Origin: a virus
Reading direction: 5' to 3' (one strand)
DNA: 35,573 nucleotides
IMG/VR virus record: IMGVR_UViG_3300043313_001992
Within the stretch, counting starts at the first letter, position 1. Every line of letters starts with the position of its first letter. The notes under the pieces were generated by a model. The model was given only the letters and a program-made list of their open reading frames with translations, had not been told where the DNA came from and made no database searches. The position numbers and the translations under genes were made by a program. Positions 8,207 through 34,699 of the stretch are shown piece after piece.

Positions 8207-9347
8207 CGCCGAGGTAGCGCTCGATGTCCGGGGTCGTCACGTCGGCCACCGGGTGACCGTACGTGTGGATGATCTCGGCGGTGGTGGCGTGGCCCATGAG
8301 CTTGGCGAGGACCTCGTACGGCATGCCGTTGTGGCGGGCCACCGAGGCGAACGTGTGGCGGTAGCCGTTGGGCGTCACGTGCCCGACCCGTAGCGCCAGC
8401 GCCAGGTCCCGGGCGTAGACCCGCACGGCGTCGAAGCTCAGCCAGCCGTCGCCGTGCGGGCCGGGGCACACGAAGTCGCCCGTGGCGTGGCGCTGGAGGG
8501 CGGGCAACGCCAGGCGCAGGTCGGTGGCCAGCGGGACCGTCCGGTGGGCGTAGGCGTGACGGTGGTCGGTCTTGAGCACCGTCGAGTAGGTGCCCCGGTT
8601 GGCGGTGCGCCCCCGCTTGATCGTGCCCTCGACCCGTAGCGTCCCGGCGGCCAGGTCGACGTAGCGCCACTGGAGGCCCATGGCCTCGCCGGGTCGGAGC
8701 CCGCACAACATCATCAGCAGGAACAACCCGGCCAGCGGCCCGCCGTCGGCAACCAGATAGTTGCGCGCCAGCGTGAACCCGGCCAGGTCGTGGAACGTGC
8801 GCCGCACGGCGACCGGGGTGCTCGGTGGGACCCGGGCCGACCGCAGCTCGTCGAGCCGGTCCGGCGTGACGCACTTCCGGCGCCCGGCGTAGTCGAGGAT
8901 CATGCCCCAGTGGGTGCGGACCTTGGTCATCGAGGCCGGGCCGAGGCGCCGCCCGAGGGCGGTCCACATATCCTCGACGTCGCCGACGGTGGCGGTCATC
9001 AGGTCGGCGTCGATGCCGAGGCCCAGCATGATGTTGCGGGCCGACCACCGGTAGGCGATGTTCGTTTGCTCGGCGTGGCCCTGCTCCTGGAACTCCAGCC
9101 ACCCGGCCACCACGGCGGCGAGCGCGCTATCGCCCGCCAGGCTGGCCCGTACGTCGAGGTCCCGGCGGCGGCGGTCCCGGCGTATCTCGCACTCCTCGAA
9201 CGTGTCGCCCCGCTCGATGTGCGCCTGCCCGCCCCAACGGTGGCGCAACGTGACCTTGCCCCGGGCCTCGTCCCAGCCGAATGACCCCTGGCCCCGGGCG
9301 AGCTTGGGCAAGGTCGCCGGTCGCCGATGTGTGCCCATGTGTCCCAT
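8202..9347 (-). CDS. int: tyrosine integrase
   Basis: 381 aa. C-terminal catalytic pattern: LRPGEA...HRHAYAHRTVPL...NGYRHTFAS...LMGHATTAEIIHTYGH (R...HxxR...Y). The N-terminus resembles a SAM/arm-type domain. Confidence 0.9.
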   Translation of the reverse strand: MGHMGTHRRPATLPKLARGQGSFGWDEARGKVTLRHRWGGQAHIERGDTFEECEIRRDRRRRDLDVRASLAGDSALAAVVAGWLEFQEQGHAEQTNIAYRWSARNIMLGLGIDADLMTATVGDVEDMWTALGRRLGPASMTKVRTHWGMILDYAGRRKCVTPDRLDELRSARVPPSTPVAVRRTFHDLAGFTLARNYLVADGGPLAGLFLLMMLCGLRPGEAMGLQWRYVDLAAGTLRVEGTIKRGRTANRGTYSTVLKTDHRHAYAHRTVPLATDLRLALPALQRHATGDFVCPGPHGDGWLSFDAVRVYARDLALALRVGHVTPNGYRHTFASVARHNGMPYEVLAKLMGHATTAEIIHTYGHPVADVTTPDIERYLGG

Positions 9348-13901: not shown

Positions 13902-13917
13902 TGATAGACGTCGATCA
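13902..13917. promoter_or_regulatory. boundary motif TGATAGACGTCGATCA
   Basis: Lies between the tape measure and Dit genes. The TMP stop (13915-13917) is in the right arm. Confidence 0.7.
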
Positions 13918-15780
13918 CGGTAGGCCCGCCAGCAGCTCCAGGCGGCGGAACCCGTAGGCGATGTCCGAGGCGTCGGCGGTGCGCGGGTAGAGGTTCAGCG
14001 TGTAGTGGCCGCCCCGGGATTCGTCGGCGACGATCGACCGCAGCATGTCCTCGGGGGCCACGATCTCGGTCCCGGCCTCGCCGCCGACGAACACCGTCGG
14101 CCCCGTGAGGACCCCGCCCTTGGCCAGGTACGGGAGGTTAGGGAAGTCGATGCGGAACCCGCCGAGGGTGCCGCCGCCGTGTTTGCCCAGCGGGCCGAGG
14201 TCGACCTCGGGGATGGCGATGGTCGGGATGGCGAAGGCCAGCCCGTTCCACAGCGAGATCAGCGCGTTGATGGGCGTCTTGATGGCCGACACGATGGCGT
14301 TGGCCGTGTCGGCGATCCGGGCGACGATGCTGCGGAAGTGGTCGGCGATGGCGTCCCACTTGCCGGTCACGAAGGACCACACCGCGCTGGCCCCGCTCTT
14401 GATCGAATCCCACGCCCCGGTGACGAAGCCGACGGCGGTGTTCATGGCCGACTGGATGCCCTGGGCGATGGCGTTGAACTTGTCGACGGTCCACTGGTAC
14501 ACGGCGGTCACACCGCTTTTGACCAGGTTCCAGGCCCCGGTGATGATCGACGTCCACACGTTCACGTAGGTCGTGATCCCGGTGACGATCCAGCCGAACA
14601 CGGTCTGGATCCAGTCCCACAGGGTCGTGACCACCGCCTTGATCACGTTCCAGGCGCCCGTCCAGAAGGCGATGACGGTGCCGACGTACAGCTCGATGCC
14701 GGACACGATCCAGCCGAACACGGTCTGTATCCAGCCCCACACGAGGGTCACCCCGGCCTTGATGCCCTCCCATACCGCGGTCACCGCCCCGCCGATGAAC
14801 TCCCACACGACGGCGGTGGCGGCCTTGATCGTGTCCCAGTTCTTCATTATCAGGAACGCCACCACGGCGATGGCGGCGCCGATCAGGATGAACGGGGCGA
14901 CGGCCGCCAGCGTGGCGAGGGCGGCGGCCCCGGCGGCGGTGGCCCACGTGATGAAGGCGGGGATGACGATGGAGCCGACCACGATGGCCAGGGCGATGAA
15001 CCCGGCGATCATCGCCTCCTTGTTGTCGCCCATGAACTTGGCGACGTCGGAGATGGCCGGTATCAACGTGTCCATCAGGAACCCCGCCAGCGAGGCGAGC
15101 ACCGGCAGCAGGGCCGTGCCGATCTGCTCCTGAAACTCGCCGAACTGGATCTGGGCGTTGCGCATTTGCCCGGCCGTCGACTTGGCCGCCGTCGACGCCT
15201 GGCCCGAGAAGGTGGTCGACATGTCGGCCATGATTTCGTCGAGCGACTTGGCCGACCCGTCGGCCTTCTTGACCTCCACGCCCATCTTCGACAAGGCGCC
15301 GGTCGAGCCGTTGGCCGCCTTCATCATGGCGTCGGTGACGGTGGCCAGGTCCTTGCCCGAACCGGCCGACACGTCGGTCGCCAGTGACAACGCCTTCTGT
15401 GCGTCCTCGGTGTTGCCGAAGCCCCGCACGAGCTTGTCCATGGCCGGGCGTAGGTCGTCGTCGGCGATGGCCGCCGACTTGGACAGCGAGCCGATGAAGT
15501 CCTCGTTGGAGGCGATGACCTCGTCGCTGGCGCCCGCCACGTTGCGCATCGTTTGGGCGAGCTTGTCGGCGGCCTCGGCGTCGGCGGCGGCCGCCTCGAC
15601 GCTGGCCTTGCCGAAGTCCACGATGCTGCTGACGGCGAAGGCGCCGCCCAGCGCCAGGGCGGCGTTCTTGGCGAACCCGCCGATCTTGGACCCGGCGCTC
15701 GACGTGGCCTTGTCGACCTCGTCGGTCATCTTCGAGGTGTCGGCCAGGAACTTGGCGACGATGGTCGGCCCGACGGCCAT
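13915..15780 (-). CDS. tail tape measure protein
   Basis: 621 aa. It has a TP901-type core (DDDLRPAMDKLVRGFGNTEDAQKALSLATDV...), a central TM-like stretch, and repeated W-x-x-I/V-x(n)-W units. GAGGTGAG lies before the ATG at 15780. Confidence 0.9.
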   Translation of the reverse strand: MAVGPTIVAKFLADTSKMTDEVDKATSSAGSKIGGFAKNAALALGGAFAVSSIVDFGKASVEAAAADAEAADKLAQTMRNVAGASDEVIASNEDFIGSLSKSAAIADDDLRPAMDKLVRGFGNTEDAQKALSLATDVSAGSGKDLATVTDAMMKAANGSTGALSKMGVEVKKADGSAKSLDEIMADMSTTFSGQASTAAKSTAGQMRNAQIQFGEFQEQIGTALLPVLASLAGFLMDTLIPAISDVAKFMGDNKEAMIAGFIALAIVVGSIVIPAFITWATAAGAAALATLAAVAPFILIGAAIAVVAFLIMKNWDTIKAATAVVWEFIGGAVTAVWEGIKAGVTLVWGWIQTVFGWIVSGIELYVGTVIAFWTGAWNVIKAVVTTLWDWIQTVFGWIVTGITTYVNVWTSIITGAWNLVKSGVTAVYQWTVDKFNAIAQGIQSAMNTAVGFVTGAWDSIKSGASAVWSFVTGKWDAIADHFRSIVARIADTANAIVSAIKTPINALISLWNGLAFAIPTIAIPEVDLGPLGKHGGGTLGGFRIDFPNLPYLAKGGVLTGPTVFVGGEAGTEIVAPEDMLRSIVADESRGGHYTLNLYPRTADASDIAYGFRRLELLAGLP

Positions 15781-20655: not shown

Positions 20656-20930
20656 GTCGGTCCTCCGGGGGCCAGGCCCGCCGCCACGTAGCGGGCACGT
20701 AGTTCGTCGAGCAGCTCCACCGTGGACACCGCCGCCAGGTCGGGGCGCATGTTGCGGGCGGCGTGCAGTGCCGCGACCGTCGCCGGGTCGGGTGAACCCC
20801 CACCACGCGGGCCGGACCGCCCGGCGACATGTCGCGACACCGCCGCGCCGAGGTCGGCCTCGTGGGCGGTGGGGCCGATCTCGACGACCTGGGCGAGCAC
20901 GTCGGCCACCGATGGCTCGACGTCTGTCAT
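20652..20930 (-). CDS. hypothetical protein between portal and protease
   Basis: 92 aa. ATGA overlap with the portal stop and GTGA overlap with the protease start. Confidence 0.6.
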   Translation of the reverse strand: MTDVEPSVADVLAQVVEIGPTAHEADLGAAVSRHVAGRSGPRGGGSPDPATVAALHAARNMRPDLAAVSTVELLDELRARYVAAGLAPGGPT

Positions 20931-22231
20931 CGGACCGCCGCCGACGCCTGGACCGAGTTGGCGTTCAGCCGTTCGGCGGCCCGTATCTCGTCGATGGTCA
21001 CGGCCCGCTGGCCGGTGGCCTCGTCGTGGATGCCGAACAAGGCCGCCCAGGCGGTGACCCGCTCGGGGAAGGCGGGCCGCACGTATTCGTCCCGGTTCAG
21101 CTCGACCCGCTCGCCCTCGGGCATCGCCCACTGGCTGAAGGCCTCCATGATCATCGCCGCCTTCGGCCGCAAATAGGCCCTCCAGTGAAAATCGTAAATG
21201 GAGCTGACGTTCTGGTAGACGAGCGACCCGTCGCCCGTCGGGAGCCCCAGCAACGTTGGCGGGACCCCCAGCAGGGTGGCGATCCGGGCCTCGTCGAATT
21301 GGCGTAGCTCAAGCAGCGCCATGTCCCGGGGCGAGATCGTGAACGGGGTTAGCTCGACGCCGCCCGACATGACGGCGGGGGCGCCCATCGACGACATGCG
21401 GGCCGCCACGAAACGGTTACGCAGGAGCGTGGCCTGCTCCTCCGATAGGTTGCCGGGGGCGGTGAGGACCCCCCACGGGATACCGCCCCGGGTCGACAAT
21501 CCGGCCTGGTACCGCTCCAGCGAGGCGGCGCCAAACAGGTTCTGGGCGAGGGCTTCGAGCGGGCCGTGACCGTGGGCGTCGCCCGGCCAGCTCGTGTAGC
21601 GGAGGTGGAGCACGTCGTCGGTGATGTCTACGCCGCCCATCAGGAAGCGCCGCACCTGGCCGCGCATCTCGACCTCGACCCAGGCCGGGTTCAGCATCAC
21701 CCACGTCCGCACCGACCCGTCACCATGGCGGGACGTCGCCCATACGAAGGCCTCGCCGTTCATGTAGCTGACGATCAGCTGCTTCATGGCCTCGGTCCAG
21801 CCCGAATACACCTCGGGCTGTGGGTTGACCATCCACCCCGTCGGCTCGATGACGTCGGTGCCCCGTAGCCGGTAGGGGGGCATCGTGGCGAGGATGCTGC
21901 TGTTGAGATCAATCGCGCCGAACACGGTGCTTACCCGGTTGATCATCCCGGCGAGCCCCCCGGCGGCGTCGCCCCAATTGGGCGTCGACCATTCGACCGG
22001 CCACCCCGACCACGCCTGCACGGGCGGCGCCCCGAGCGACTCGGGGTACATGACGTGGGTGTTGCCGTAGCCCTCGGACGTCGTCGGCCCGGTCCCGACC
22101 GGGGGCGGGGGCTGGATGTTGTCGTTCGGCGGCCACGACCGGGGGTCGTCGGCCCGGTGGTGCCGCTGCTCGGCCACGACCAGGCCCGAGGGGGTCACGT
22201 GCTCCATCGGACCTGAGGGTAGCCAGGGCAC
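20927..22231 (-). CDS. portal protein (HK97-type)
   Basis: 434 aa. LGVPPTLLGLPTGDGSLVYQNVSSIYDFHWRAYLRP is typical of the portal family. The start is ambiguous: GTG at 22231 or ATG at 22207. Confidence 0.85.
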   Translation of the reverse strand: MPWLPSGPMEHVTPSGLVVAEQRHHRADDPRSWPPNDNIQPPPPVGTGPTTSEGYGNTHVMYPESLGAPPVQAWSGWPVEWSTPNWGDAAGGLAGMINRVSTVFGAIDLNSSILATMPPYRLRGTDVIEPTGWMVNPQPEVYSGWTEAMKQLIVSYMNGEAFVWATSRHGDGSVRTWVMLNPAWVEVEMRGQVRRFLMGGVDITDDVLHLRYTSWPGDAHGHGPLEALAQNLFGAASLERYQAGLSTRGGIPWGVLTAPGNLSEEQATLLRNRFVAARMSSMGAPAVMSGGVELTPFTISPRDMALLELRQFDEARIATLLGVPPTLLGLPTGDGSLVYQNVSSIYDFHWRAYLRPKAAMIMEAFSQWAMPEGERVELNRDEYVRPAFPERVTAWAALFGIHDEATGQRAVTIDEIRAAERLNANSVQASAAVR

Positions 22232-22234
22232 GGG

Positions 22235-22250
22235 TGATAGACGTCGATCA
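22235..22250. promoter_or_regulatory. boundary motif TGATAGACGTCGATCA
   Basis: Lies 4 nt upstream of the longest portal ORF, at the portal/island junction. Confidence 0.7.
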
Positions 22251-22272
22251 GCCCGACGGGCGCTGAGTAGGA

Positions 22273-22320
22273 GGGGCCGTACGACCTATGTTGCCCCGGT
22301 TAATGGCCGCCGATACTATT
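22273..22320 (+). promoter_or_regulatory. promoter-like repeat, copy 1 (leadered)
   Basis: GGGGCCGTACGACCTATGTTGCCCCGGTTAATGGCCGCCGATACTATT. It shares CCTATGTTGCCCCGGTTAAT and GCCGATACT with copies 2-4. The -10-like GATACT is followed by a 29-nt leader carrying GAAAGG before the ATG at 22350. Confidence 0.6.
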
Positions 22321-22349
22321 AGCACACCACCACCCCGAAAGGCCCCGAC

Positions 22350-22577
22350 ATGCGCACCGCCACCACCTACACCCGCCAGATCAACCGCCTGCTCGACCAG
22401 CTCGCCAGCTCGCAGCGCCAGGCCGCCGGATACCGCCAGCTCGCCAAGGCCGCCGCCGCCCTGAACATGGAGTACGAGGTCGAGCGGATGACCGCCAGCG
22501 CCGACGAGATGGACCGCGACGCCGACGACCTGATGGACCAGCTGGTGGACGCCGGTTACACCCCCGAGGGCATCTGA
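22350..22577 (+). CDS. hypothetical small acidic helical protein
   Basis: 75 aa. GAAAGG lies 8 nt upstream of the ATG. It is the first gene of a four-gene mini-operon. Confidence 0.65.
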   Translation: MRTATTYTRQINRLLDQLASSQRQAAGYRQLAKAAAALNMEYEVERMTASADEMDRDADDLMDQLVDAGYTPEGI

Positions 22578-22807
22578 TGGACACCGTGACGCGTGACGAG
22601 GCCGCCTGGCGGCCGCTCGACGAGGTGCGGGTCGGCGACCTGATCCACCCCGGCAAGGGCAACGACGTGCACCGCCTCACGGCCATCGAGGTCGTCGAGG
22701 TCGTGACGGTCCGGCGACCGTCGAAGTCGATCATCGAGGTCGAGCTGGCCGACGGGTCGATGGCGTGGGGTGGCCGGGCCATGAAGTTCTGGATGGTCAA
22801 GCCGTGA
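22577..22807 (+). CDS. hypothetical small beta-rich protein
   Basis: 76 aa with a TGATG overlap with the previous stop. Confidence 0.6.
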   Translation: MDTVTRDEAAWRPLDEVRVGDLIHPGKGNDVHRLTAIEVVEVVTVRRPSKSIIEVELADGSMAWGGRAMKFWMVKP

Positions 22808-22989
22808 GCTGGCGACCGGGTGAGCCTCACGAGTTCTCGGCGGGTCGCCGCGCCCGGGTCCACCGCCAATTCGAGCGAGCGCTCGATGCCCGGTATCCGG
22901 GCTACCGGCACCGCATCGTGCCCGCCACCGAGGTCGTCGCCCTCCAGGCCACCACCGATGACACCCCACGAGAGGACCCCCCGACATGA
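22804..22989 (+). CDS. hypothetical protein
   Basis: 61 aa from the GTG at 22804 (GTGA overlap). The longest ORF starts at 22765. Confidence 0.45.
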   Translation: MSWRPGEPHEFSAGRRARVHRQFERALDARYPGYRHRIVPATEVVALQATTDDTPREDPPT

Positions 22990-23207
22990 CCACCACCGAC
23001 CTCGACCGCCACACCCGCAACGTGCAGCGCCTCGCCGCCAAGGCGGTCGCCGCCGAGGCCCGAGCCAGCGCCCTGCGGGCCGACCTGGAGGCCGAGGCCG
23101 TCGCCATGCGCCGCCAGGGCGCCACGCTGGCCGCCATCGGCGCCGTCGTGGGCATGTCGGCCCCCGGCGTCCTCAAGATGCTTCGCCGCCACGGGGTGAC
23201 GCCGTGA
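22986..23207 (+). CDS. small HTH DNA-binding protein
   Basis: 73 aa with an ATGA overlap. It has a coiled N-half and a C-terminal HTH-like GATLAAIGAVVGMSAPGVLKMLRRHG. Confidence 0.6.
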   Translation: MTTTDLDRHTRNVQRLAAKAVAAEARASALRADLEAEAVAMRRQGATLAAIGAVVGMSAPGVLKMLRRHGVTP

Positions 23208-23212
23208 GCGAA

Positions 23213-23260
23213 GGGGCCGATCGGCCTATGTTGCCCCGGTTAATACGCGCCGATACTTGG
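23213..23260 (+). promoter_or_regulatory. promoter-like repeat, copy 2 (leaderless geometry)
   Basis: GGGGCCGATCGGCCTATGTTGCCCCGGTTAATACGCGCCGATACTTGG. GATACT is followed by 6 nt and then the ATG at 23264. Confidence 0.6.
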
Positions 23261-23263
23261 AAC

Positions 23264-23440
23264 ATGAACAACACCACCCCCGCCCCCGCCGCCCCCGCTA
23301 CCCGCAAGTTCACCATCCACGTGACCAGCCGTCACCAGTGCCCGGTCACCCGCACCATCGAGGCCGCCAACATTTGGGAGGCCCAGGCCTACGCCCTCAA
23401 GCGTTACTCCAAGTACGTGACCCTGCGGGTCGTCGGCTGA
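23264..23440 (+). CDS. hypothetical 58-aa protein (MNNTTPAPAAP...)
   Basis: The ATG sits 7 nt after the -10-like GATACT. GC3 is high. A hairpin plus T-run follows the gene. Confidence 0.55.
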   Translation: MNNTTPAPAAPATRKFTIHVTSRHQCPVTRTIEAANIWEAQAYALKRYSKYVTLRVVG

Positions 23441-23466
23441 CCACCACCCCCGCCCCCCCCACGACA

Positions 23467-23499
23467 GGCCCCGGCTACGGCCGGGGCCATCGTCGTTTT
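23467..23499 (+). terminator. intrinsic-terminator-like hairpin
   Basis: GGCCCCGGC-TACG-GCCGGGGCC (9-bp perfect stem) followed by atcgtcgTTTT. Confidence 0.55.
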
Positions 23500-23505
23500 C
23501 GGGGA

Positions 23506-23553
23506 AGGGCCGGACGACCTATGTTGCCCCGGTTAATACGCGCCGATACTTGG
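23506..23553 (+). promoter_or_regulatory. promoter-like repeat, copy 3 (leaderless geometry)
   Basis: AGGGCCGGACGACCTATGTTGCCCCGGTTAATACGCGCCGATACTTGG. The ATG at 23557 lies 7 nt after GATACT. Confidence 0.6.
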
Positions 23554-23556
23554 AAC

Positions 23557-23811
23557 ATGCCCAACACCGATACCACCCACTTCCTCGCCCGCCACAACAC
23601 CACCGCCTGCGGGGCGCCGTTCAACCCCGACGAGGTCACGACCTGTGTCCTGTTCATCGAGTGCGACGCCTGCGAGGACGTCACCCAGGCCGAGGCCCAC
23701 CGCCGGGGCCTGGAGCGCAGCCGCATGGTGGCCCGCTCCCACGCCCTGAACGCCGCCGCACGGGCCGGTGACGCCGCCGAGCGCCACAAGGTCATGTTCG
23801 GCAGCTGCTGA
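23557..23811 (+). CDS. hypothetical 84-aa four-Cys protein
   Basis: MPNTDTTHFLARHNTTACGAPFNPDEVTTCVLFIECDACED has a C-x13-C-x5-C-x2-C arrangement. Its TGA stop is the first arm of the motif copy at 23809-23824. Confidence 0.55.
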   Translation: MPNTDTTHFLARHNTTACGAPFNPDEVTTCVLFIECDACEDVTQAEAHRRGLERSRMVARSHALNAAARAGDAAERHKVMFGSC

Positions 23812-23824
23812 TAGACGTCGATCA
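23809..23824. promoter_or_regulatory. boundary motif TGATAGACGTCGATCA
   Basis: Its TGA is the stop of 23557-23811. It is immediately followed by the terminator hairpin. Confidence 0.7.
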
Positions 23825-23825
23825 C

Positions 23826-23860
23826 GGCCCCGGGCTACGGCCCGGGGCCGCCGTCGTTTT
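23826..23860 (+). terminator. intrinsic-terminator-like hairpin
   Basis: GGCCCCGGGC-TACG-GCCCGGGGCC (10-bp perfect stem) followed by gccgtcgTTTT. Confidence 0.55.
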
Positions 23861-23865
23861 CGGGA

Positions 23866-23913
23866 AGGGTCGGATGGCCTATGTTGCCCCGGTTAATACG
23901 GGCCGATACTTGG
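23866..23913 (+). promoter_or_regulatory. promoter-like repeat, copy 4 (leaderless geometry)
   Basis: AGGGTCGGATGGCCTATGTTGCCCCGGTTAATACGGGCCGATACTTGG. The ATG at 23917 lies 7 nt after GATACT. Confidence 0.6.
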
Positions 23914-23916
23914 TAC

Positions 23917-24207
23917 ATGAACGCAACCCCCGCCCCCACCGTCAAGGCCCGCCGCACCGCCGAAAGCTACGTGTACGCCGTCGAGGTCGACGGGGTCGCC
24001 ACGGGCGCCACCATCAAGACCGTGCGGTGCACGGCTCGGGCGAACTTCTACGGGATCTTCGACCCGACTGGCGAGCGGATCGGCTCGGCCGAGTTCAAGT
24101 CGGCGCTGGCGGCGGCCAAGGCCAGCGCCGACCGCCCCGCCGAGCGGGCGACCAACGCCGCCGAGATCGCCGCCGTGACCGACTACCTGTTCATTACCGG
24201 TCAGTAG
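23917..24207 (+). CDS. hypothetical 96-aa protein (MNATPAPTVKA...)
   Basis: GC3 is high. It is convergent with terL and overlaps its stop by 7 nt. Its N-terminus resembles that of the 23264 gene. Confidence 0.55.
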   Translation: MNATPAPTVKARRTAESYVYAVEVDGVATGATIKTVRCTARANFYGIFDPTGERIGSAEFKSALAAAKASADRPAERATNAAEIAAVTDYLFITGQ

Positions 24208-25655
24208 ACGGCCGGGACGACGACCTCGGGGGCCGCCACCACGCCCCAGCGGGCCAGCGTGGCGGCCACCAGCGGGCTGATGTCGGCCGACGCCCGGCGC
24301 TTCCAGGCCCACGCCTCGCCGACGGGCCGCTTGGTGGCCCCGACCACGGCGTCGCCCAGCCGGTAGTCGCCCCGGTGGGACAGCTGGGCACGGGTGGCGG
24401 CATCGTGGAAATCGCCGCACGCCCGGACCATGTCGCTGAGGCTGATCAGCCGCACGGCGTGGGACCCGTCGAAGCGCCGGGTGGCCCGCTCCAGCGCCGG
24501 GATGGCCGACGCCGCCGGGTTGCCCCGGTCGATCACGATGGGGGCCTCCCACGTGGCGGCCACTTCCCCGGCCCGGGTGACGATCCGCTCCAGGTCGGAC
24601 CCCGCCTCGATGACCTCCAGAGCCACCACGTGCCCTTCTCCGGGGATTTCGACGGTCCCGGCGACGACCAACGCCCCTCGGTCCCGTTCGGGCGTGAAAT
24701 CGAGCCCCAGGGCGACCTGGGTCCCGGGCATCAGGTCGTCCCGGCGGCACGCCGCCCACGTGACGGCGTCGATGCCCGTGGCGGCGTCGGCGTCGGCCCA
24801 AACGTTCAGGTGCTCCCGCAGGAACGTGGCCCGGTCCATGGTCAGGGCGCCGTCGGATAGGGCCGCCTCGATGACCCCGCCGGGATACCCCATCGACGGG
24901 TTGGCCGCCGCCCACGCCGCCCGGTCGAATACGTCGGCGTCGGCCTCGGCGCACCATTCGAGCCAGCACATCGTCGAGGCCGGGTTGGCGACCTCCAGGC
25001 GGCCAACGTCGGTGAAGTGGCGCCACAACCCCGACCGGCTGTTCCCGGCGTTGCTGAGGAGCCAGATCTGGGCGTGCGGCTTGGCGGCCATGGCGGGCTG
25101 GATGCCCGACACGACGGCCATCGTCTCGTGGGCGTGGGCCTCGTCGACCACCGCCAGGTCGAGCGACAACGACCGGGCGGCCTTCTTGCCGGTGGGGGTG
25201 ACCGGCATGTAGCGCGAGCCGTTGTCCATGACGAGGACCTCGCGGTGATTCGACCGGTCGATGCGGGCCACCCGGTCGCGGAACGGGGTCGCCATGAGCA
25301 GCTCGACGTGCTCGGCCCATTTCGTCCTGGCGAGCGCACGGTCCTGGGCGGTGTAGGCGACCGTCTGGTTAGGCGGGATCAGCTGGCGGGCGATGCGGGC
25401 CAGCATCAGCGTGGTCTTGCCGTTCTGGCGGGCCACGGCGACACCGACCGACCGGTGGGCGGGCAGCTTCGTGACGGGGTCGTATTCGCCCGCCACGTCG
25501 GCGGCGTGTTCCTGCCACGGGAACAGCTCCCAGCCCAGTAGGCGGGCCACCTGGCGGTCCAGGGGGCCACGGGACGGGCGCGCCGGGTTGCGCTTGGTGC
25601 CCCAGCGGGGCGCCGCTGATAGACGTCGATCAGGTGCCGCTGGGGTCGAGTTCAC
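24201..25655 (-). CDS. terL: terminase large subunit
   Basis: Walker A-like VARQNGKTT and Walker B-like LAVVDEAH, with a C-terminal nuclease half. The longest ORF (GTG at 25655) overlaps terS and contains motif copy 25617-25632. The in-frame GTG at 25550 (VARLLGWELFPWQ) is an alternative start. Confidence 0.85.
   Translation of the reverse strand: MNSTPAAPDRRLSAAPRWGTKRNPARPSRGPLDRQVARLLGWELFPWQEHAADVAGEYDPVTKLPAHRSVGVAVARQNGKTTLMLARIARQLIPPNQTVAYTAQDRALARTKWAEHVELLMATPFRDRVARIDRSNHREVLVMDNGSRYMPVTPTGKKAARSLSLDLAVVDEAHAHETMAVVSGIQPAMAAKPHAQIWLLSNAGNSRSGLWRHFTDVGRLEVANPASTMCWLEWCAEADADVFDRAAWAAANPSMGYPGGVIEAALSDGALTMDRATFLREHLNVWADADAATGIDAVTWAACRRDDLMPGTQVALGLDFTPERDRGALVVAGTVEIPGEGHVVALEVIEAGSDLERIVTRAGEVAATWEAPIVIDRGNPAASAIPALERATRRFDGSHAVRLISLSDMVRACGDFHDAATRAQLSHRGDYRLGDAVVGATKRPVGEAWAWKRRASADISPLVAATLARWGVVAAPEVVVPAVY
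25617..25632. promoter_or_regulatory. boundary motif TGATAGACGTCGATCA
   Basis: The terS stop (25630-25632) is in the right arm. The motif lies at the terS/terL junction. Confidence 0.7.
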
Positions 25656-26154
25656 GGGCGATCCGATCCCACGGGTCCTCGGCCTCGTCGGGCTCGACGT
25701 CGAGGCCCTGAAGCTCCTCGACCGACACGATCAGCGTGGACCGCTCCAGCTTGGCGCCCAGCTCCAGCAACCGGGCGACGGCGGTGGCGGGCATGTGGTC
25801 GGCGTCCATGGCCGACAACGCCTGCGCCGCCTTCATCACCGCCGCCCGGCCCGCCTTGCGGTGGATTTCGTGCATCGAGCGGATGGCCTCCAGGCGTTCC
25901 TGGTCCTCGACCCGGTGGCACGTGTCGTCCCACGCCTCGGCCCGCTCCCGCCACGCCCACTTGTCGGCCAGCTCCCGCACCCGGCGGTAGCTCAGGTCCA
26001 CCTGCTCGGCGATCTTGGCGAGGTCCCGGCGGGGGGCGGGGGTGTCGCGGTAGAGGCGGAAGATGCCGTGCTCGCGGGTCGGCTCGCCCGTCATCCGTTC
26101 CCATGGGTCGGTTTCAGGGAGGTCCTCGGGGGGTGGCGACTTGTGGCGGGGCAC
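25630..26154 (-). CDS. terS: terminase small subunit
   Basis: 174 aa directly upstream of terL. The N-terminal HTH-like segment (REHGIFRLYRDTPAPRRDLAKIAEQVDLSYRRVRELADKWAWRERAEAWD) is typical of actinophage TerS. The start may be GTG at 26154 or ATG at 26094. Confidence 0.75.
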   Translation of the reverse strand: MPRHKSPPPEDLPETDPWERMTGEPTREHGIFRLYRDTPAPRRDLAKIAEQVDLSYRRVRELADKWAWRERAEAWDDTCHRVEDQERLEAIRSMHEIHRKAGRAAVMKAAQALSAMDADHMPATAVARLLELGAKLERSTLIVSVEELQGLDVEPDEAEDPWDRIARELDPSGT

Positions 26155-26164
26155 GTCGCCGAGG

Positions 26165-27373
26165 CTAACCAGGCGCCGTGAAATCGTGCGGTACCCCGGT
26201 GGCCTCGTTGACGGGCTCGACGCCCGTGGCCTCCTGCCACCGCCGGGCGATAACGTCGACGTAGCGGGGGTCCAGCTCGACGAGGCGGGCCGTGCGGCCG
26301 GTCTGGTGCGCCGCTATCAGGGTCGAGCCGGACCCGGCGTAGGGGTCGAGCACGGTGCAGGCGTCGGGCGCCCAGCGGGTCAGGATCTCGGCCAGGAGGC
26401 GGGTCGGCTTCTGGGTGGGGTGCATCCGGTGGGCGGCCTCGGCCCCGCCGAACGCCCCGAACCAGTAGCAGCGCAGCAGGTCCCGCTTGTGGCGCTGGGC
26501 CGACCAGATCAGCTCGAAGCCCGAGCCGAAGCCGGGGTCGCTTGACTCGGTGCGCTTGTCCCACACCAGCCACGATCCGTCGAGGTCGTCGGCGGTGAGG
26601 GTGCGCCGGTAGTAGTCGGCCCCGAACCAGAACTGCTCGCGCACGTCGGCGGCATAGGCGCGCAGAATCGAGGCGTCATAGGGCCGGTCGTCGTGGAGGA
26701 CGGGCCGGTAGTTGCCGCCGGGGGTGCCCCGCAGGATCGCCTTCGACGATCCACCGATGCCCGACCAGTCGGTGTCCAGGTTCATGCCGTAGGGCGGGTC
26801 CGTCAGGAGGCATCCGATACGGGCGCCGCCCACCGCCCGGTCGAGGACCGTCGCGTCGGCCGAGTCGCCGCACATCAGCCGGTGCGGGCCGAGGCGCCAC
26901 ATGTCGCCCAGGGCGGTGATGGCGGGGGCGGTGGCCGGGGTGTTGTCGCCGTCGGTCGGTGGGGGTGTCAGGCGGGCCAGCAGGTCGTCGAGGTCGGTGG
27001 CGGCGAACGAGGCGGCGGCGAGCAGCGTGGGGTCGGCGGCGTTGACCTCGGTGAGTAGGTCGAGTAGCGCCTGCTCGTCGTAGGTGCCCAGCTCGCTGGT
27101 CCGGTTGTCGGCCAGAGCGAACGCCTTGGCCGTCGCTTCGTCGGCGTCGGTGCGGACCACGGCCAGCTCGGTCCAGCCCAGCTGTCGTGCTGCCAGGAAG
27201 GTGTGGTTGCCCGCGATGATCGTGCCGTCGAGGCGGGCCACGATGGGCTTGAGCTGGCCGAAGCGTTCGAGGCTGCGGGCCACGGCGTCGACGTCGCCCC
27301 GTCTCGGGTTGCCCGGTAGCTGGTGCAGGTCGTCCAGCTGGGTGGCCAGCGGCAGCAGGTTGTCGGCGATCAC
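26165..27373 (-). CDS. ParB-like nuclease domain / DNA N6- or N4-methyltransferase fusion (copy 1)
   Basis: 402 aa from the GTG at 27373 (GTGA overlap). ParB-domain motif: LPGNPRRGDVDAVARSLERFGQLKPIV...GNHTFLAA. Motif IV is TDPPYG and motif I is VLDPYAGSGST (beta-class order). Confidence 0.85.
   Translation of the reverse strand: MIADNLLPLATQLDDLHQLPGNPRRGDVDAVARSLERFGQLKPIVARLDGTIIAGNHTFLAARQLGWTELAVVRTDADEATAKAFALADNRTSELGTYDEQALLDLLTEVNAADPTLLAAASFAATDLDDLLARLTPPPTDGDNTPATAPAITALGDMWRLGPHRLMCGDSADATVLDRAVGGARIGCLLTDPPYGMNLDTDWSGIGGSSKAILRGTPGGNYRPVLHDDRPYDASILRAYAADVREQFWFGADYYRRTLTADDLDGSWLVWDKRTESSDPGFGSGFELIWSAQRHKRDLLRCYWFGAFGGAEAAHRMHPTQKPTRLLAEILTRWAPDACTVLDPYAGSGSTLIAAHQTGRTARLVELDPRYVDVIARRWQEATGVEPVNEATGVPHDFTAPG
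26957..27373. repeat. 417-bp near-identical direct repeat, unit A (5' ParB-domain part of methyltransferase 1)
   Basis: Aligns with 28183-28599 at a constant offset of 1226 bp with only scattered mismatches. The antisense ORF translations given at 27084 and 28310 are identical for 73 residues. Confidence 0.85.
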
Positions 27374-28599
27374 GGCGTGCCCTTGGTGAAGTCGTGCGCC
27401 GCACCGGTGGCCTCGTGGATCGGCTCGAAGCCGGTCGCCTCCTGCCAGCGACGAGCGATCACGTCGCAGTAGCGGGGGTCGAGCTCGATGAGCCGGGCGG
27501 TGCGGCCGGTCTGGTGGGCGGCGATCAGGGTGGTGCCCGACCCGGCGAAAGGGTCGAGCACGACGGCGCCGGGCTTCGTGTGGTTGGCCACGGCCCGCTC
27601 GACGAGCGCGACGGGCTTCATCGTTGGGTGGTCCTTGGAGGCGGCGGGCCGGGCGAACTCCCAGACCGAATCCTGGGTGCGGTCCGGCACCGGGTGGTGC
27701 GGGCCGCCCGGTGCCCAGCCGAAGAACAGCGCTTCGTGGCGGTAGTGGTAGTCGCTGTGGCCCATCACCAGGGAGTTCTTCACCCACGCCAGGGTCTGGC
27801 GCCAGATCCCCAGGTCGTCGAGCGCCTCAACGAAGCAACGCATGGCCGGACCTAGGGGCGCCGTCACGAACCAGACGGCGCCGGGGTGGCAGCAGGCCAG
27901 GGTCGCCAGGAAGGCGGCGCTCAGCAGCGCCTTGGTCTGGTCGGCGTCGAGGGCGTCGTTGTCGATGGTCAGGGCGTCGGCGGTCTTGCCGATGTAGTCC
28001 ACGCCGTAGGGCGGGTCGGTCCACACCAGGTCGGCCAGGCGGTCGCCCATCACCCGCTCCACGTCGGTGGTGACGGTGGCGTCACCGCAGAGCAGGCGGT
28101 GCGGCCCCAGGCGCCACACGTCGCCCTTGGTCGTGAAGGCCGGGGGTGCGGGCGGGACGTGGTCGGGGTCCAACAGCGGCGACGGTGGGGGCGTCAGGCG
28201 GGCCAGCAGGTCGTCGAGGTCGGTGGCGGCGAACGAGGCGGCGGCGAGCAGGGTGGGGTCGGCTTCGTTGACCTCGGTGAGCAGGTCCAGTAGCGCCTGC
28301 TCGTCGTAGGTGCCCAGCTCGCTGGTCCGGTTGTCGGCCAGAGCGAACGCCTTGGCCGTCGCTTCGTCGGCGTCGGTGCGGACCACGGCCAGCTCGGTCC
28401 AGCCCAGCTGTCGTGCTGCCAGGAAGGTGTGGTTGCCCGCGATGATCGTGCCGTCGAGGCGGGCCACGATGGGCTTGAGCTGGCCGAAGCGTTCGAGGCT
28501 GCGGGCCACCGCCTCGACGTCGCCCCGTCGGGGGTTGCCCGGTAGTAGGTGCAGGTCGTCGAGCGGGGTGGCGAGCGGTAGGAGGTTGTCGGCGATCAC
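27370..28599 (-). CDS. ParB-like nuclease domain / DNA N6- or N4-methyltransferase fusion (copy 2)
   Basis: 409 aa from the GTG at 28599 (GTGA overlap with the HNH stop). It has the same ParB N-domain, TDPPYG, HPTMKP and VLDPFAGSGTT, but its central region differs from copy 1. Confidence 0.85.
   Translation of the reverse strand: MIADNLLPLATPLDDLHLLPGNPRRGDVEAVARSLERFGQLKPIVARLDGTIIAGNHTFLAARQLGWTELAVVRTDADEATAKAFALADNRTSELGTYDEQALLDLLTEVNEADPTLLAAASFAATDLDDLLARLTPPPSPLLDPDHVPPAPPAFTTKGDVWRLGPHRLLCGDATVTTDVERVMGDRLADLVWTDPPYGVDYIGKTADALTIDNDALDADQTKALLSAAFLATLACCHPGAVWFVTAPLGPAMRCFVEALDDLGIWRQTLAWVKNSLVMGHSDYHYRHEALFFGWAPGGPHHPVPDRTQDSVWEFARPAASKDHPTMKPVALVERAVANHTKPGAVVLDPFAGSGTTLIAAHQTGRTARLIELDPRYCDVIARRWQEATGFEPIHEATGAAHDFTKGTP
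28183..28599. repeat. 417-bp near-identical direct repeat, unit B (5' ParB-domain part of methyltransferase 2)
   Basis: See unit A. Confidence 0.85.
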
Positions 28600-28871
28600 C
28601 AGGACCTCGATGGTGGTGGGGGTGTGCGCACCGTGGGGTGGCGCAGCTCGGCGGCGATCATCTTGCCCTGGTGTTTCTGGCAGGGCAGGCATGCCGGGCG
28701 CAACACGCAACACCCCGACCCGGGGACGTGGTTGTGGAGCGCCAGCGGTGGGTGATGGTCCGCGCTGTTGGCCTTGGTCCCGTCGCACACGATGCGCAAC
28801 ACGCACGGCAGGCCCAGCGCCAGGAGGCGGGCACGTGCTCGCTGGTACGCCCGGTCGTAGGGGTCGGCCAC
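28596..28871 (-). CDS. HNH endonuclease (packaging-associated)
   Basis: 91 aa. CVLRIVCDG...ADHHPPLALHNH...LRPACLPCQKHQG fits the Cys4 + H-N-H pattern. It is the first gene of the terminase operon. Confidence 0.8.
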   Translation of the reverse strand: MADPYDRAYQRARARLLALGLPCVLRIVCDGTKANSADHHPPLALHNHVPGSGCCVLRPACLPCQKHQGKMIAAELRHPTVRTPPPPSRSW

Positions 28872-28888
28872 GCCGCCGAGGGTAGCGG

Positions 28889-28904
28889 TGATAGACGTCG
28901 ATCA
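28889..28904. promoter_or_regulatory. boundary motif TGATAGACGTCGATCA
   Basis: Lies 18 nt upstream of the HNH start and abuts the cos-like block. Confidence 0.7.
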
Positions 28905-28907
28905 CGG

Positions 28908-31939: not shown

Positions 31940-32824
31940 ATGAACGTTGCCACCACCACACCCAGCTTTGACCTGGCGACCGTGCCCGAGGCCGACCGCG
32001 GCCGGGTCGCCGCCCTGATCCCCAGCCCCCGCATCGCCGAGGCCTACGTGCATCGGTCCTTCAACGGCCGGACCGACTTCGACCTGCTCGACTACGCCGT
32101 CGCCGAGATGGAAAACGTCATCCTGGCGGGGCCGACCGGGTCGGCCAAGACCACCTTCTTCCGGGCCTACGCCGCCGCCCGGGGGCTGCCGTTCTGCGTA
32201 GTCGAGTGCTCGGGCGCCATCGACCTCGGCATGGTGCTGGGCAAGACCACCATCGACCCCGACGGCGGCGTCCGGTGGATCGACGGCGAGATGACGCTGG
32301 TGGCCCGCTACGGCGGCGTCGTGCTGATCGACGAGATCAACATGGCGCACCCCCGCATCACGGCCGGGTTCCACCAGTTGCTGGCGGTCACCCGGCGCAT
32401 GAGCATCCCCGAGGCGGGCGAGACGATCATCGCCGGGCGGGGCGGCACCGGGGCGGCGCAACCGACGCTGTTCGGGGCGGCGTACAACCCCCGCTACCAG
32501 GGCACGGTGCGGCTGAGCGAGGCCCTGCAGAACCGCTACGCCATCCCGCTGAAGTGGGGATACGAGCGGGACGTCGAGGCGCAGCTGGTGACCTCGGAGC
32601 GGCTGCTCGACATGGCCGACAACATCCGGGCGCTCGACGAGATCCGCACGCCGCTGTCCACCAACGCCCTCATGGAATTCGAGCGCCACGTCGACGGGCT
32701 GGGCATGGACACCGCCCGCATGCTCCTGGTCAACCGCTTCGCCCCCGAGGAACAGGCGCCGGTCGCCCGGGCGCTCGAGGCCAACGCCGATGCCATCCAG
32801 GCCGAACTGGACGCAGCCGAATGA
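31940..32824 (+). CDS. MoxR-class AAA+ ATPase (AAA_5; CbbQ/NorQ/CobS-like)
   Basis: 294 aa. GGAGGAA lies before the ATG. Walker A is GPTGSAKTT and Walker B is VVLIDEINMAHP. Single AAA module of CbbQ/NorQ size. Confidence 0.85.
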   Translation: MNVATTTPSFDLATVPEADRGRVAALIPSPRIAEAYVHRSFNGRTDFDLLDYAVAEMENVILAGPTGSAKTTFFRAYAAARGLPFCVVECSGAIDLGMVLGKTTIDPDGGVRWIDGEMTLVARYGGVVLIDEINMAHPRITAGFHQLLAVTRRMSIPEAGETIIAGRGGTGAAQPTLFGAAYNPRYQGTVRLSEALQNRYAIPLKWGYERDVEAQLVTSERLLDMADNIRALDEIRTPLSTNALMEFERHVDGLGMDTARMLLVNRFAPEEQAPVARALEANADAIQAELDAAE

Positions 32825-32833
32825 GCGAGCATT

Positions 32834-32849
32834 TGATAGTCAGCTATCA
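32834..32849. promoter_or_regulatory. boundary palindrome TGATAGTCAGCTATCA
   Basis: Lies in the 99-nt gap between the AAA+ and VWA genes. It is followed by AGTGTTAGG and GTCGATAAG, as in the 31100 region. Confidence 0.7.
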
Positions 32850-32923
32850 AGTGTTAGGACTAAGATGTCGATAAGTGCAGTGGCTCGCCCCACCGGGGGC
32901 GGGCGAGACCCAGGAGGGCCAGA

Positions 32924-34699
32924 ATGGATCCAGCGAGGCGGGGCACGACCGAGGTCAAGCTGCTCCACACTCAGCTCACCCCCCAGCAGCTGGTGCGGCT
33001 GTCTCGCCTTGGCCGCGAGCTACGCCTGACCGACCAGATCCTGTCGGATGACCTGGACACCGTCAGCATCGTGGACGGCGGCCCCGCCCCGGCGTGGACG
33101 TCGCTGGCGGGCGACCACGTCAGCTACGCCCTCGACCGCATGCCGCTGCCCGAAACGAAGCTCGACGTGGCGGTCTGGCTGGGCACCAACGCCCACGAGT
33201 TGGGCCACGTGCTCTTCAGCCCCCGGAGCGGCTCGGCGCTCATGACCCGGCTGGCCGAGGCCGAGCGGGTCCACCTGCGGGGCATCGCCGACCTGCACAA
33301 CATCGCCGAGGACCAGCGCCAGGAACGGCTGATCCTGGCCCGCTTCGCTCCCTGGCGCGCCTACCTGACCGCGGCCCTCGGGCACCACATCGTCGTGGGC
33401 GACGCCCACGCCTGGTTGCTGCTGGCGGGCCGCACGTGGCTACCTGACGCCGTACGGGCGCAGGCCCGGCGCCTCTTCGCCGACACCTACGACGAGCCTT
33501 CGGCCATCCGGGTGGCCGAGTTGATCGGCGACTATCAGCGGCTCGTCGATCCTGGCGACACCGAGGCCCCCGAAGCGTTCGAGATCCTCGAAGCGCTCCA
33601 CGACCTGTTCGCCTCGGTGCCGCCGCTGCGCTCACGTTGCCAACCGCTGGCCGAGGGCGAGCCTGACACCAGTGAGGCGGGCGGCCAGGCGCCACCCACC
33701 GCCGACGAGGCCGAGCCCGACGAGGGCGACGACGGCGCCGAGACGGGCGAGGGCGCCGAGGGCGACGCTCAGGACGGCCAGGAGGGCGCTGGGGCGGGCG
33801 AGACGGGTGCCAGCGAGTCGGGCGAGGGCGGCCAAGGCGAGGGCGCCCAGGAGGCGCCCAGCCGGGCGGCGCAGATCACCGCGGCGGCCGCCGAGCAGCT
33901 GGACGCCGCCGACGTCGCCGAGGACATCGCCGCGGTGCTCAACGCCATCGGAGGCGGCCGCGGCTCGGACCAGCCCGAGGGCGCCGACCGCCGGGGCACC
34001 CACGTCCTGGCCACCGACGCCGCCCGGCGCCTCCACCACGAGGTCGGCGACGCCCTGCTCGACCTGAAGGATGCCAACGAGCCCGGCTGGGTGCGCCGGG
34101 TCGACTCTGGGCGGTTGAACGTACGGCGCCTGGCCAACCCGCAGGTCAACGCCGACGAGCTCTTCGACCGCTTCGAACCCGGCCAGCTCGAGGCCAACGA
34201 GCTCGAGCTCGTGCTGCTGCTCGACGTCAGCGGGTCGATGAACGTCCAGCTGTGGGATCTGGCCGAGGTGACCTGGGCGATCCGCCACGCCGTCGACGAC
34301 CTCGAGGGCACCGCGACGGTCATCACCTGGGACGACGGGCCGCACCGCATCCTGGCGGCGCCCGGCGACCGGCCCGACGAGCGCATGTTCGTGCCAGGCT
34401 GCGGCGGCGGCACGAGGCCCACCAGCGCCTTGACCGAGGCCTACCGGTTGCTGTCGGGCTCGACCTGCCACAACCGGCTGATGGTGATCCTCACCGACGG
34501 GGCCTGGCACGGCATGTCGTACCAGTACGACCCGCTGATGGAGGCCATGAACGACGCCGGGATCGTGACGGTGTGCGGCCTGCTCGGCCCCAACGCCGGA
34601 ACCGACATCCACGGCTGCAGCTACGGCGAGCGCCTCGGCTCGCTGTCGGACCTCGCCCGGTTGTTCGGCCGGGTGGCAGCCGCCCGTATCGGAGCGTGA
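32924..34699 (+). CDS. von Willebrand factor A (VWA) domain protein with N-terminal HExxH motif and acidic linker (CobT/NorD/CbbO-like partner)
   Basis: 591 aa. AGGAGGG lies before the ATG. HELGH is at 33194-33208. A D/E/G-rich linker spans about 33650-33850. The MIDAS-type LLLDVSGSM starts at 34223, followed by VILTDGAWHG. Confidence 0.8.
   Translation: MDPARRGTTEVKLLHTQLTPQQLVRLSRLGRELRLTDQILSDDLDTVSIVDGGPAPAWTSLAGDHVSYALDRMPLPETKLDVAVWLGTNAHELGHVLFSPRSGSALMTRLAEAERVHLRGIADLHNIAEDQRQERLILARFAPWRAYLTAALGHHIVVGDAHAWLLLAGRTWLPDAVRAQARRLFADTYDEPSAIRVAELIGDYQRLVDPGDTEAPEAFEILEALHDLFASVPPLRSRCQPLAEGEPDTSEAGGQAPPTADEAEPDEGDDGAETGEGAEGDAQDGQEGAGAGETGASESGEGGQGEGAQEAPSRAAQITAAAAEQLDAADVAEDIAAVLNAIGGGRGSDQPEGADRRGTHVLATDAARRLHHEVGDALLDLKDANEPGWVRRVDSGRLNVRRLANPQVNADELFDRFEPGQLEANELELVLLLDVSGSMNVQLWDLAEVTWAIRHAVDDLEGTATVITWDDGPHRILAAPGDRPDERMFVPGCGGGTRPTSALTEAYRLLSGSTCHNRLMVILTDGAWHGMSYQYDPLMEAMNDAGIVTVCGLLGPNAGTDIHGCSYGERLGSLSDLARLFGRVAAARIGA
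33522..33537. promoter_or_regulatory. intragenic copy TGATCGGCGACTATCA
   Basis: Uses the TGATCG arm variant seen in the GACGTC subfamily. Lies inside the VWA CDS. Confidence 0.35.

Follow-up and report, generated by a model that had tools for sequence, protein, structure and literature searches.

Why would a phage carry a block of small genes, read in the opposite direction, between the genes of the large terminase subunit (terL) and the portal protein? The question is raised by the virus record IMGVR_UViG_3300043313_001992, a stretch of 35,573 nucleotides (nt) that was analysed as a whole and is called the window below. About 2 kb of plus-strand genes (22232-24207, hereafter the island) lie there between the portal gene on the left (20927-22231, minus strand; Pfam Phage_portal 1e-41, PHROG 12) and terL on the right (24201-25655, minus strand; PHROG 9 at 1.5e-62, also recognised by Pfam). 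The answer that we consider probable is that the block is a lineage-specific hyperplastic, or "moron", accessory island, whose terminator–promoter repeats would drive leaderless transcription and also act as joints for homologous recombination.

The sequence CCTATGTTGCCCCGGTTAAT is found four times, without a mismatch, on the plus strand of the island (22285, 23225, 23518 and 23878), and none is expected from shuffled sequences. No copy was detected elsewhere in the 35.6-kb window with up to 3 mismatches (up to 5 in a second scan). The repeat family to which it belongs spans about 75 nt. A preliminary description of this DNA had reported the four copies, and also that an ATG stands exactly 6 nt after GATACT in copies 2 to 4; both statements are correct, since GCCGATACT-N6-ATG is present exactly three times, at 23249, 23542 and 23902. 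These copies, P2 (23213-23263, which reads TTGCCC-N15-GATACT-N6-ATG), P3 (23506-23556) and P4 (23866-23916), all on the plus strand, are predicted to be leaderless promoters. The first copy, P1 (22270-22317, plus strand; TTGCCC at 22291-22296 and GATACT at 22312-22317), ceases to resemble the others right after GATACT, as had been noticed, and is followed by a 5' leader (22318-22349, plus strand) of 32 nt rather than the 29 first proposed. The Shine-Dalgarno-like GAAAGG of this leader (22337-22342) ends 7 nt before the ATG at 22350, so that P1 looks like the promoter of a leadered transcript. The orthologue in L001, a metagenomic relative whose island is compared below, has the same leader, with GGAAGG.

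When the four copies are aligned with the six of L001, CCTAT.TTGCCC.GGTTAA and GCCGATACT are invariant over all ten, and the 4-5 nt between them are variable; invariant blocks around a variable spacer are the pattern expected under functional constraint. All ten copies are of the type TTGCCC-N15-GATACT (window type), and the ATG is exactly 6 nt after GATACT in eight of them. A second type is found in L024, a more distant relative, in which 12 of 12 promoters fit TTG(C/A)(C/G)N-N17/18-TAAC(G/A)T-N6/7-ATG, where 0.01 is expected. In Actinobacteria the -10 element is TANNNT, the -35 element is of the TTG type, leaderless mRNAs prefer AUG, and 21% of the primary transcription starts of Streptomyces coelicolor yield leaderless mRNAs (PMC4895711). 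The L024 type fully fits this -10 and a TTG-type -35, with the start codon at the expected start of the transcript. The window type keeps the A at -11 and the T at -7, and its spacing from the -10 to the ATG is that of the L024 type. Of 20 leaderless cassettes, 19 have AAC or AAG as their second codon, which would be in keeping with constrained 5' ends of leaderless mRNAs. No promoter copy of either type was found outside the islands in the DNA examined, except one of the L024 type in an unrelated contig, L030, where it directly precedes a homologue of g4, the fourth gene of the island (its seven open reading frames, ORFs, are called g1 to g7 from left to right). Hence the repeat is not the general early or late promoter of the phage.

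Two GC-rich hairpins, which the preliminary description had read as terminators, are also supported by folding. T1 (23461-23499, plus strand) consists of a 9-bp GC stem with a tetraloop, an outer helix and then TTTT (-37.1 kcal/mol, z score -5.8); T2 (23825-23860, plus strand) of an 11-bp GC stem with a tetraloop, and then TTTT (-34.6 kcal/mol, z score -3.8). The hairpins themselves span 23467-23488 and 23825-23850. The T-run was rightly noted, but it comes after an outer helix of 4 bp and not straight after the main stem. Neither hairpin is followed by a T-run on the opposite strand, and the predicted terminators are therefore one-way. A hairpin with TTTT stands upstream of P3 and P4, of two copies in L001 and of some copies in L024; P1 and P2 have none. 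No hairpin was found downstream of g7. The earlier view of three autonomous cassettes has thus to be reduced to two insulated ones, since the cassette P4-g7 lacks a terminator and runs antisense into terL.

How general is this arrangement? Searches based on terL yielded many metagenomic relatives. In six of the nine more distant ones terL and portal are directly adjacent, with 34-173 bp between them (L004, terL 78% identical; L005, 74%; L008, 67%; L018, 78%; L019, 75%; L020-23, 76%), as had been assumed to be the normal order, and in the other three (L006, L007 and L017) only co-directional small genes intervene. The opposite-strand island is restricted to the three closest lineages: the window phage itself (also seen as L012-15; terL 100%), L001 (96%) and L016/L024 (83%). 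That the junctions of the other relatives lack it indicates that the block is a lineage-specific insertion at an insertion-tolerant junction. A conserved accessory of virion assembly is ruled out, as there are relatives without the block. A scan of IMG/VR for the exact repeat motif returned L001 only, and the same scan of genome_contigs gave no match. The single match in a metagenome, L002, was rejected as a chance match within a low-GC gene of a penicillin-binding protein.

The comparison of the islands is what points to recombination. The L001 island (2.9 kb, with six copies of the window-type repeat) aligns with that of the window in four colinear blocks, separated by three differences. The segment P2-g5-T1, whose 293 bp are exactly the P2-P3 spacing, is missing in L001, which has a single promoter copy in its place. 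L001 has an extra block of 985 bp (c-T-P-d-e-P) between the terminator that follows g6 and the promoter of g7, and this block is bounded by promoter copies. Finally, L001 has a promoter copy and two other ORFs, a and b, in the place of g3. Two of the three differences are therefore whole cassettes between promoter copies, and the third abuts a promoter copy. The L024 island is longer (5.1 kb, about 18 genes, 12 promoters). Counterparts of g2, g4 and g6 of the window and of a and c of L001 are present in it, with amino-acid identities of 60-81% and in another order: g6 is the sixth gene of the window and the first cassette of L024, and a and c do not occur in the window at all. Hence the content of the island differs across all three lineages. 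One joint may even be seen within a gene. The g6 homologue of L001 starts with MNTTTPAHT, as does g5 of the window, and TTHF(L/I)A is common to g6 of the window and g6 of L024; a g5-like N-terminus on the g6 homologue of L001 places this joint within the first ~8 codons. These observations suggest that the repeats are the joints at which cassettes have been gained, lost and swapped between relatives.

We propose the following mechanism. The island would be a fast-turnover block inserted at the terL-portal junction and transcribed against the late operon. Each repeat would be a promoter for the host RNA polymerase, with transcription starting at the start codon and giving a leaderless mRNA, except at P1, which would serve a leadered operon of four genes. 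Where a terminator lies just upstream, it would form a composite unit of about 100 bp together with the promoter and the first ~8 codons, and such units, being near-identical direct repeats of some 60-100 bp, would be preferred substrates of homologous recombination. Recombination between them would delete, insert and reorder whole promoter-ORF(-terminator) cassettes, and it would also homogenise the copies within one genome, which would explain why the window and L001 have one promoter type and L024 another, despite the ORFs that they share. The island would be expressed outside the late programme, in lysogeny or early in infection, and read-through of the late operon would be antisense across it; its orientation with respect to the late operon, the one-way terminators, the private promoters and the temperate genome favour such a timing. 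The products may be modulators of the host or of competition between phages, g4 being a possible regulator of the repeats.

Several observations weigh against this proposal. Just two of the four repeat copies of the window have an adjacent terminator. The GC content of the island (0.70) lies within that of its flanks (0.69-0.74), which is unlike classic morons, whose composition differs. Neither mini-circles nor polymorphism within a population were seen; the contigs L012-L015, from four samples, show the same arrangement over the part that each of them covers. As a promoter, the window type is atypical, with G instead of T at -12 and a spacer of 15 nt, and a simple sigma-70 scan finds nothing; moreover, the invariant block (20 nt) is much longer than a -35 hexamer, which suggests that something besides sigma contacts has been conserved. 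Promoter activity, the start of transcription at the ATG and the timing of expression are deduced from sequence alone. We infer from a comparison of three genomes that recombination has caused the indels, and wholesale replacement or independent acquisition could yield similar patterns. Last, searches of Pfam, PHROGs, PADLOC and protein databases gave no function that can be assigned to the island proteins.

What the island encodes can nevertheless be described. The preliminary description counted seven small genes, and six of them have a clear coding signal, with a GC content at third codon positions (GC3) of 0.93-0.97; in g3 (22804-22989, plus strand; 61 amino acids, aa) the signal is weak (GC3 0.80), and this ORF, which has other DNA in its place in L001 and no homologue in L024, is a doubtful gene. 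All the others are on the plus strand too. In the operon of P1, g1 (22350-22577; 75 aa, GC3 0.97) codes for an acidic, helical orphan with an orthologue in L001 (85% amino-acid identity; ratio of nonsynonymous to synonymous substitution rates, dN/dS, 0.32), and g2 (22577-22807; 76 aa, GC3 0.96) for another orphan, whose orthologues in L001 and L024 are 80% and 61% identical (dN/dS 0.53). The last gene of this operon, g4 (22986-23207; 73 aa), encodes a basic protein with a long helix and a C-terminal helix-turn-helix (HTH), and has orthologues in L001 and L024. The leaderless cassettes contain g5 (23264-23440; 58 aa, GC3 0.93), an orphan that L001 lacks together with its promoter and terminator; g6 (23557-23811; 84 aa, GC3 0.95), with an N-terminal cluster of four cysteines and a conserved helical C-terminus (74% identity with L001, 69% with L024); and g7 (23917-24207; 96 aa, GC3 0.94), an orphan whose last 7 nt overlap the stop of terL and whose L001 orthologue is 93% identical (dN/dS 0.23). 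For the five ORFs with orthologues in L001, dN/dS is 0.23-0.60, against 0.08 for terL; this indicates that they are real genes, under relaxed constraint or fast-evolving.

That no protein family could be recognised has been borne out, the proteins being orphans by Pfam, PHROG and PADLOC, with the exception of the small HTH protein g4. The cassette proteins have no match in these three resources. The seven proteins, concatenated into one query, retrieved nothing from phages by tblastn, and nothing from 5.8 billion proteins in a search that was probably swamped by low-complexity words. An exhaustive search with g7 (1.84 billion representatives) gave one real homologue, P0001 (58% identity). Four other matches were discarded as artefacts, being summed weak matches to giant proteins with RTX, Ig or WD40 repeats. 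A single-sequence AlphaFold2 (AF2) model of g7 is unusable (predicted local distance difference test score, pLDDT, 56). The seven proteins have no clear membrane segments, and we can only class the products as putative small cytoplasmic accessory proteins. The contig that encodes P0001, L011, is phage-like and unrelated to the window. GC hairpins separate its small genes from one another, and a promoter-like element that contains a dyad, TCAGCTGAGTTGC...GCAAC.GAGCTGATA(C/T)GG, is repeated at 2095, 5916 and 6522; it may be usual for small-gene arrays of actinophages to have repeated terminator-promoter units.

The only gene common to all three islands is g4, and its AF2 model, built on an alignment of 17 sequences, is a confident one (pLDDT 95; helices 3-43, 48-55 and 59-68). 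Members of its family have only weak matches, to HTH_23, Sigma70_r4 and HTH_38. A fold search with the model returned HTH proteins, all non-significant, and a profile search against the PDB nothing significant. We regard g4 as a candidate regulator of the island. Outside the islands, g4 homologues occur in L026 and L028. In L026, the gene directly follows a pair of genes encoding a MoxR-like AAA_5 protein and a VWA protein (L026 4206-7213), a pair which is conserved in relatives and is present in the window (31940-34699), where the sole copy of g4 is that of the island.

It is tentatively possible that the repeats are regulated promoters in which the long invariant block is the operator of a dimeric HTH protein, g4 being the candidate, so that the island would be a self-contained regulon, turned on or off as a whole, and the repeat would be conserved mainly by the binding of its regulator and not by recombination. 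This is compatible with the mechanism proposed above, and would refine it. The ubiquity of g4 in the islands and its predicted long-helix-plus-HTH structure agree with the idea, and so do the promoters: in the 13 of L024 and L030, conservation of the spacer CGTTAAC equals that of the hexamers, and this spacer forms a dyad, CGTTA-N7-TAACG, over the -10; the L030 homologue of g4 is directly preceded by such a promoter. Compared with the spacer/-10 module of the L024-type promoter (e.g. 9099-9136) in reverse complement, the upstream block that is invariant in the window type (22285-22306) is identical at 17 of 20 positions; the two promoter families therefore seem to share one module of about 20 bp, which is inverted and differently placed in one with respect to the other. 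On the other side, the window-type block is only weakly dyad-symmetric, the g4 homologues of L026 and L028 have no such promoters nearby, and the HTH resemblance of g4 did not reach significance in the fold search. A g4-operator pair is in our opinion a reasonable hypothesis.

A related idea, which seems rather unlikely to us at present, is that the island is a gene-capture platform that does without an integrase. Its unit of ~60-100 bp (terminator, leaderless promoter and first ~8 codons) would combine a transcription signal, the context of translation start and a recombination site, so that orphan cassettes from a common pool could be plugged in in any order, ready for expression; the copies of one genome would evolve in concert, with one type in the window and L001 and another in L024, and be placed under the common control of g4 through the operator-like module. 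Other elements have been discarded as explanations of the block. It is not an integron gene-cassette array, which would have an IntI integrase next to it and attI/attC sites, imperfect inverted repeats, 3' of each cassette: no integrase adjoins the island (the sole integrase of the window, a tyrosine integrase at 8202-9347, is 13 kb away), the repeats precede the ORFs and are direct, not inverted, and a search for inverted repeats at the flanks was negative. Scans of the island for Rfam families, tRNAs and inverted repeats gave no matches, which excludes a known RNA family and a transposon with terminal inverted repeats.

If the window-type repeat were read by an alternative sigma factor, sigma-28/WhiG-like or other, the expression of the island would be tied to the developmental or stress state of the host. 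A resemblance to sigma-28/WhiG promoters had indeed been pointed out, and it holds for the -10 element: GCCGATAC, invariant in the ten copies, agrees with the flagellar/WhiG -10 GCCGATAA at 7 of 8 positions, and the G at -12 and the 15-nt spacer are poor for the housekeeping sigma factor. It does not extend to the -35 element. TAAA is absent at any plausible spacing: none of its four bases is matched at 15 nt, where GTTG stands, and no more than one at 14 or 16 nt, where TTGC or TGTT stands. The criterion used for sigma-28/WhiG promoters, a -35 TAAA and a -10 GCCGATAA with at most 2 mismatches in total (PMC8325347), rejects the repeat because of its -35 element. Moreover, the cassettes of the sister island L024, including those of the g6, a and c homologues, carry canonical promoters of the housekeeping type, TTGNNN-N17/18-TAACGT, and there is no sigma gene among the ~30 window proteins that were scanned with Pfam, a set that includes a minority of the structural genes. 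We consider this explanation unlikely.

The copies share their first ~8 codons, and the preliminary description took the MN(N/A)T(T)PAP N-termini of two proteins as related, so that one could think of tandem duplication of an ancestral gene with its promoter, which would have produced a paralogous family and would have no role in the exchange of cassettes. The common N-termini are in fact part of the DNA repeat, and are not a sign of protein homology: in an all-against-all BLASTP of the island proteins, no pair is alike beyond about residue 12. In addition, cassette content differs between genomes whose terL are 96% identical, and the promoter type in front of g6, a and c varies from genome to genome. 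Duplication is thus a very improbable origin of the array. Least credible of all is a coding role of the repeat, with translation from an upstream in-frame ATG and a shared leader peptide, MLPRLIRADTW: this ATG is in frame in copies 2 to 4 of the window and was used by automatic gene callers (calls of 108 and 96 aa in L012), but in copy 6 of L001 a 1-nt deletion shifts its frame, which is then closed by a TGA, GC3 is 0.67 over the 12 "extension" codons, among them the rare TTA and ATA, and the L024-type repeats have no conserved upstream ATG, all of which indicates that it is not the start codon.

A different repeat marks the left edge of the island. A 16-bp near-palindrome, TGATAGACGTCGATCA, is found at 22235-22250, 3 nt upstream of the portal start, and it occupies the same edge in L001 (863) and L024 (4215). 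A second copy in the island (23809-23824) overlaps the stop codon of g6, and the arrangement is the same after the g6 homologue of L001 (2488). The window has five exact copies, all in one orientation (13902, 22235, 23809, 25617 and 28889), against 0.1 expected, and variants with 2-3 mismatches at 6187, 17873, 19932, 20914 and other positions. It sits at gene junctions of the late operon, and its outer TGA is often the stop codon of the upstream gene. Further sites are at 7355 in L001 and 7462 in L024, and 21 kb of L007 contain 13 perfect copies of TGATAGACGTCTATCA; the palindrome was not found in L004, L006, L008 or L009. In character it is similar to the dyad repeats, 17 bp long, of Cluster O mycobacteriophages or to stoperator-like sites.

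As regards the phage itself, no isolated relative was found. A distant DNA search with 20900-25700 gave no match among 50,697 isolated phage records, the identity of its terL to any isolated phage is at most 32% (tblastn), the matches being mostly to actinophages, and a scan of genome_contigs with a terL peptide pattern returned no confirmed relative. It appears to be a siphovirus-like actinobacteriophage that is seen in metagenomes only. By its gene content it is a temperate phage, since it encodes the integrase mentioned above and an XRE-type HTH gene (from 5665, plus strand), which is divergent from an HTH_17 gene (5193-5444, minus strand). Between these two genes, 5445-5665 is a divergent control region of lower GC content, with repeated GTGGCA/TGCCAC motifs which are probably immunity operators and are distinct from both the 16-bp palindrome and the island repeat. 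The window as a whole has about 70% GC.

The other genes deserve a brief mention. The small terminase gene terS (25630-26154) is confirmed by PHROGs. For terL, the databases contain an identical protein, P0006, with a length of 449 aa, and this puts the probable true start of the gene near 25550; the start of the longest ORF (25655) overlaps terS and one copy of the palindrome. The window also encodes a primase-helicase, two ParB-methylase genes, a GH25 lysin and the AAA_5 and VWA gene pair. The ParB-methylase genes (26165-28905, minus strand) are tandem paralogues of the type ParB-N + N6/N4 DNA methyltransferase, which share 300 nt at 98% identity (26957-27256 and 28183-28482) and 177 nt at 84%. 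In the tail region, 14266-14838 contains families of direct repeats with a period of 120 nt (and 33 nt) within an ORF of 621 aa (13915-15780, minus strand), presumably the tape measure gene.

What would such islands be useful for? The 22 predicted leaderless promoters, of two related types, form a compact, naturally replicated set for studies of promoters and of leaderless translation in Actinobacteria. The cassettes are a pool of fast-evolving small orphan proteins, of the kind where anti-defence or host-takeover functions are usually found, and g4 with the dyad module makes a concrete, testable candidate pair of regulator and operator.

Near-identical motifs upstream of small genes are familiar from actinophages: the conserved early promoters of the Streptomyces phage phiC31 and the start-associated sequences of Cluster K mycobacteriophages are examples. 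The likeness to the island lies in the many near-identical regulatory motifs that precede small genes. The difference is that the known motifs are spread through early regions, or are part of the translation signal; to our knowledge, no one has described them as joints at which the cassettes of an antisense array between terL and portal recombine.

A moron, in the sense of Hendrix and Juhala and as known from HK97 and HK022, is an extra gene with its own promoter and terminator, located between two genes that are adjacent in relatives; a differing nucleotide composition and expression from the repressed prophage belong to the same definition. The moron-like character that was attributed to the island early on is plausible in so far as the block is an insertion between genes adjacent in relatives, has predicted promoters and terminators of its own, resides in a temperate genome and is dispensable for virion assembly, as relatives lack it. 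The part of the definition that concerns composition does not apply, as the island equals its flanks in this respect. It also differs in being an array of 4-12 cassettes with one repeated regulatory unit, and not a single insertion.

In Cluster O mycobacteriophages, predicted SigA-like promoters give leaderless mRNAs, one of them for a reverse-oriented gene in the structural operon, a dyad-symmetric repeat occurs in intergenic positions over the genome, and there is a gene indel with a direct repeat at its flanks (Cresawn et al. 2015, PMC4351075). Predicted promoters of leaderless mRNAs, an intergenic dyad repeat and an indel at a direct repeat are common to both systems. The promoters of Cluster O are, however, single and dissimilar, and do not form a near-identical array, and its palindrome, TGTTCGGNNNCCGAACA, differs from TGATAGACGTC(G/T)ATCA of the phage studied here. 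The phages themselves are not related in sequence, terL being at most 32% identical to that of any isolated phage.

The repeated regulatory cassette, which was at first thought unusual, has its closest counterpart in the promoter-early stem-loop (PeSL) cassettes that T4-type phages carry in their hyperplastic regions (Arbiol et al. 2010, PMC2839356; Comeau et al. 2014, PMC4122927). In both cases a composite motif of roughly 100 bp, in the island a predicted promoter that is joined at some copies by a terminator hairpin, recurs right in front of orphan ORFs within a hypervariable region, close relatives differ by indels and replacements which the motif bounds, and cassettes bring regulatory signals of their own, here a predicted promoter and, in part, a predicted terminator. 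Excised mini-circles of cassettes belong to the PeSL picture as well. The differences are substantial. PeSL cassettes belong to lytic T4-like myoviruses, whereas the present phage is a temperate, high-GC (70%), siphovirus-like actinophage. They have an AT-rich upstream element and a Shine-Dalgarno sequence, both of which are missing here, where transcripts are predicted to be leaderless and the repeat reaches into the coding region. In the island the terminator is upstream of the promoter and is absent from some copies, whereas the PeSL signals are interleaved; and the island, known from sequence data, is on the opposite strand of the packaging and head module. For these reasons it is best seen as an analogue of PeSL and not as a member of that family. 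If our proposal is correct, the PeSL principle, by which accessory genes are both expressed and shuffled by one motif, extends beyond the lytic T4-type phages that infect Gram-negative hosts: a similar principle would have arisen in a temperate lineage of high-GC actinophages, in a leaderless form whose recombination unit reaches into the coding sequence.

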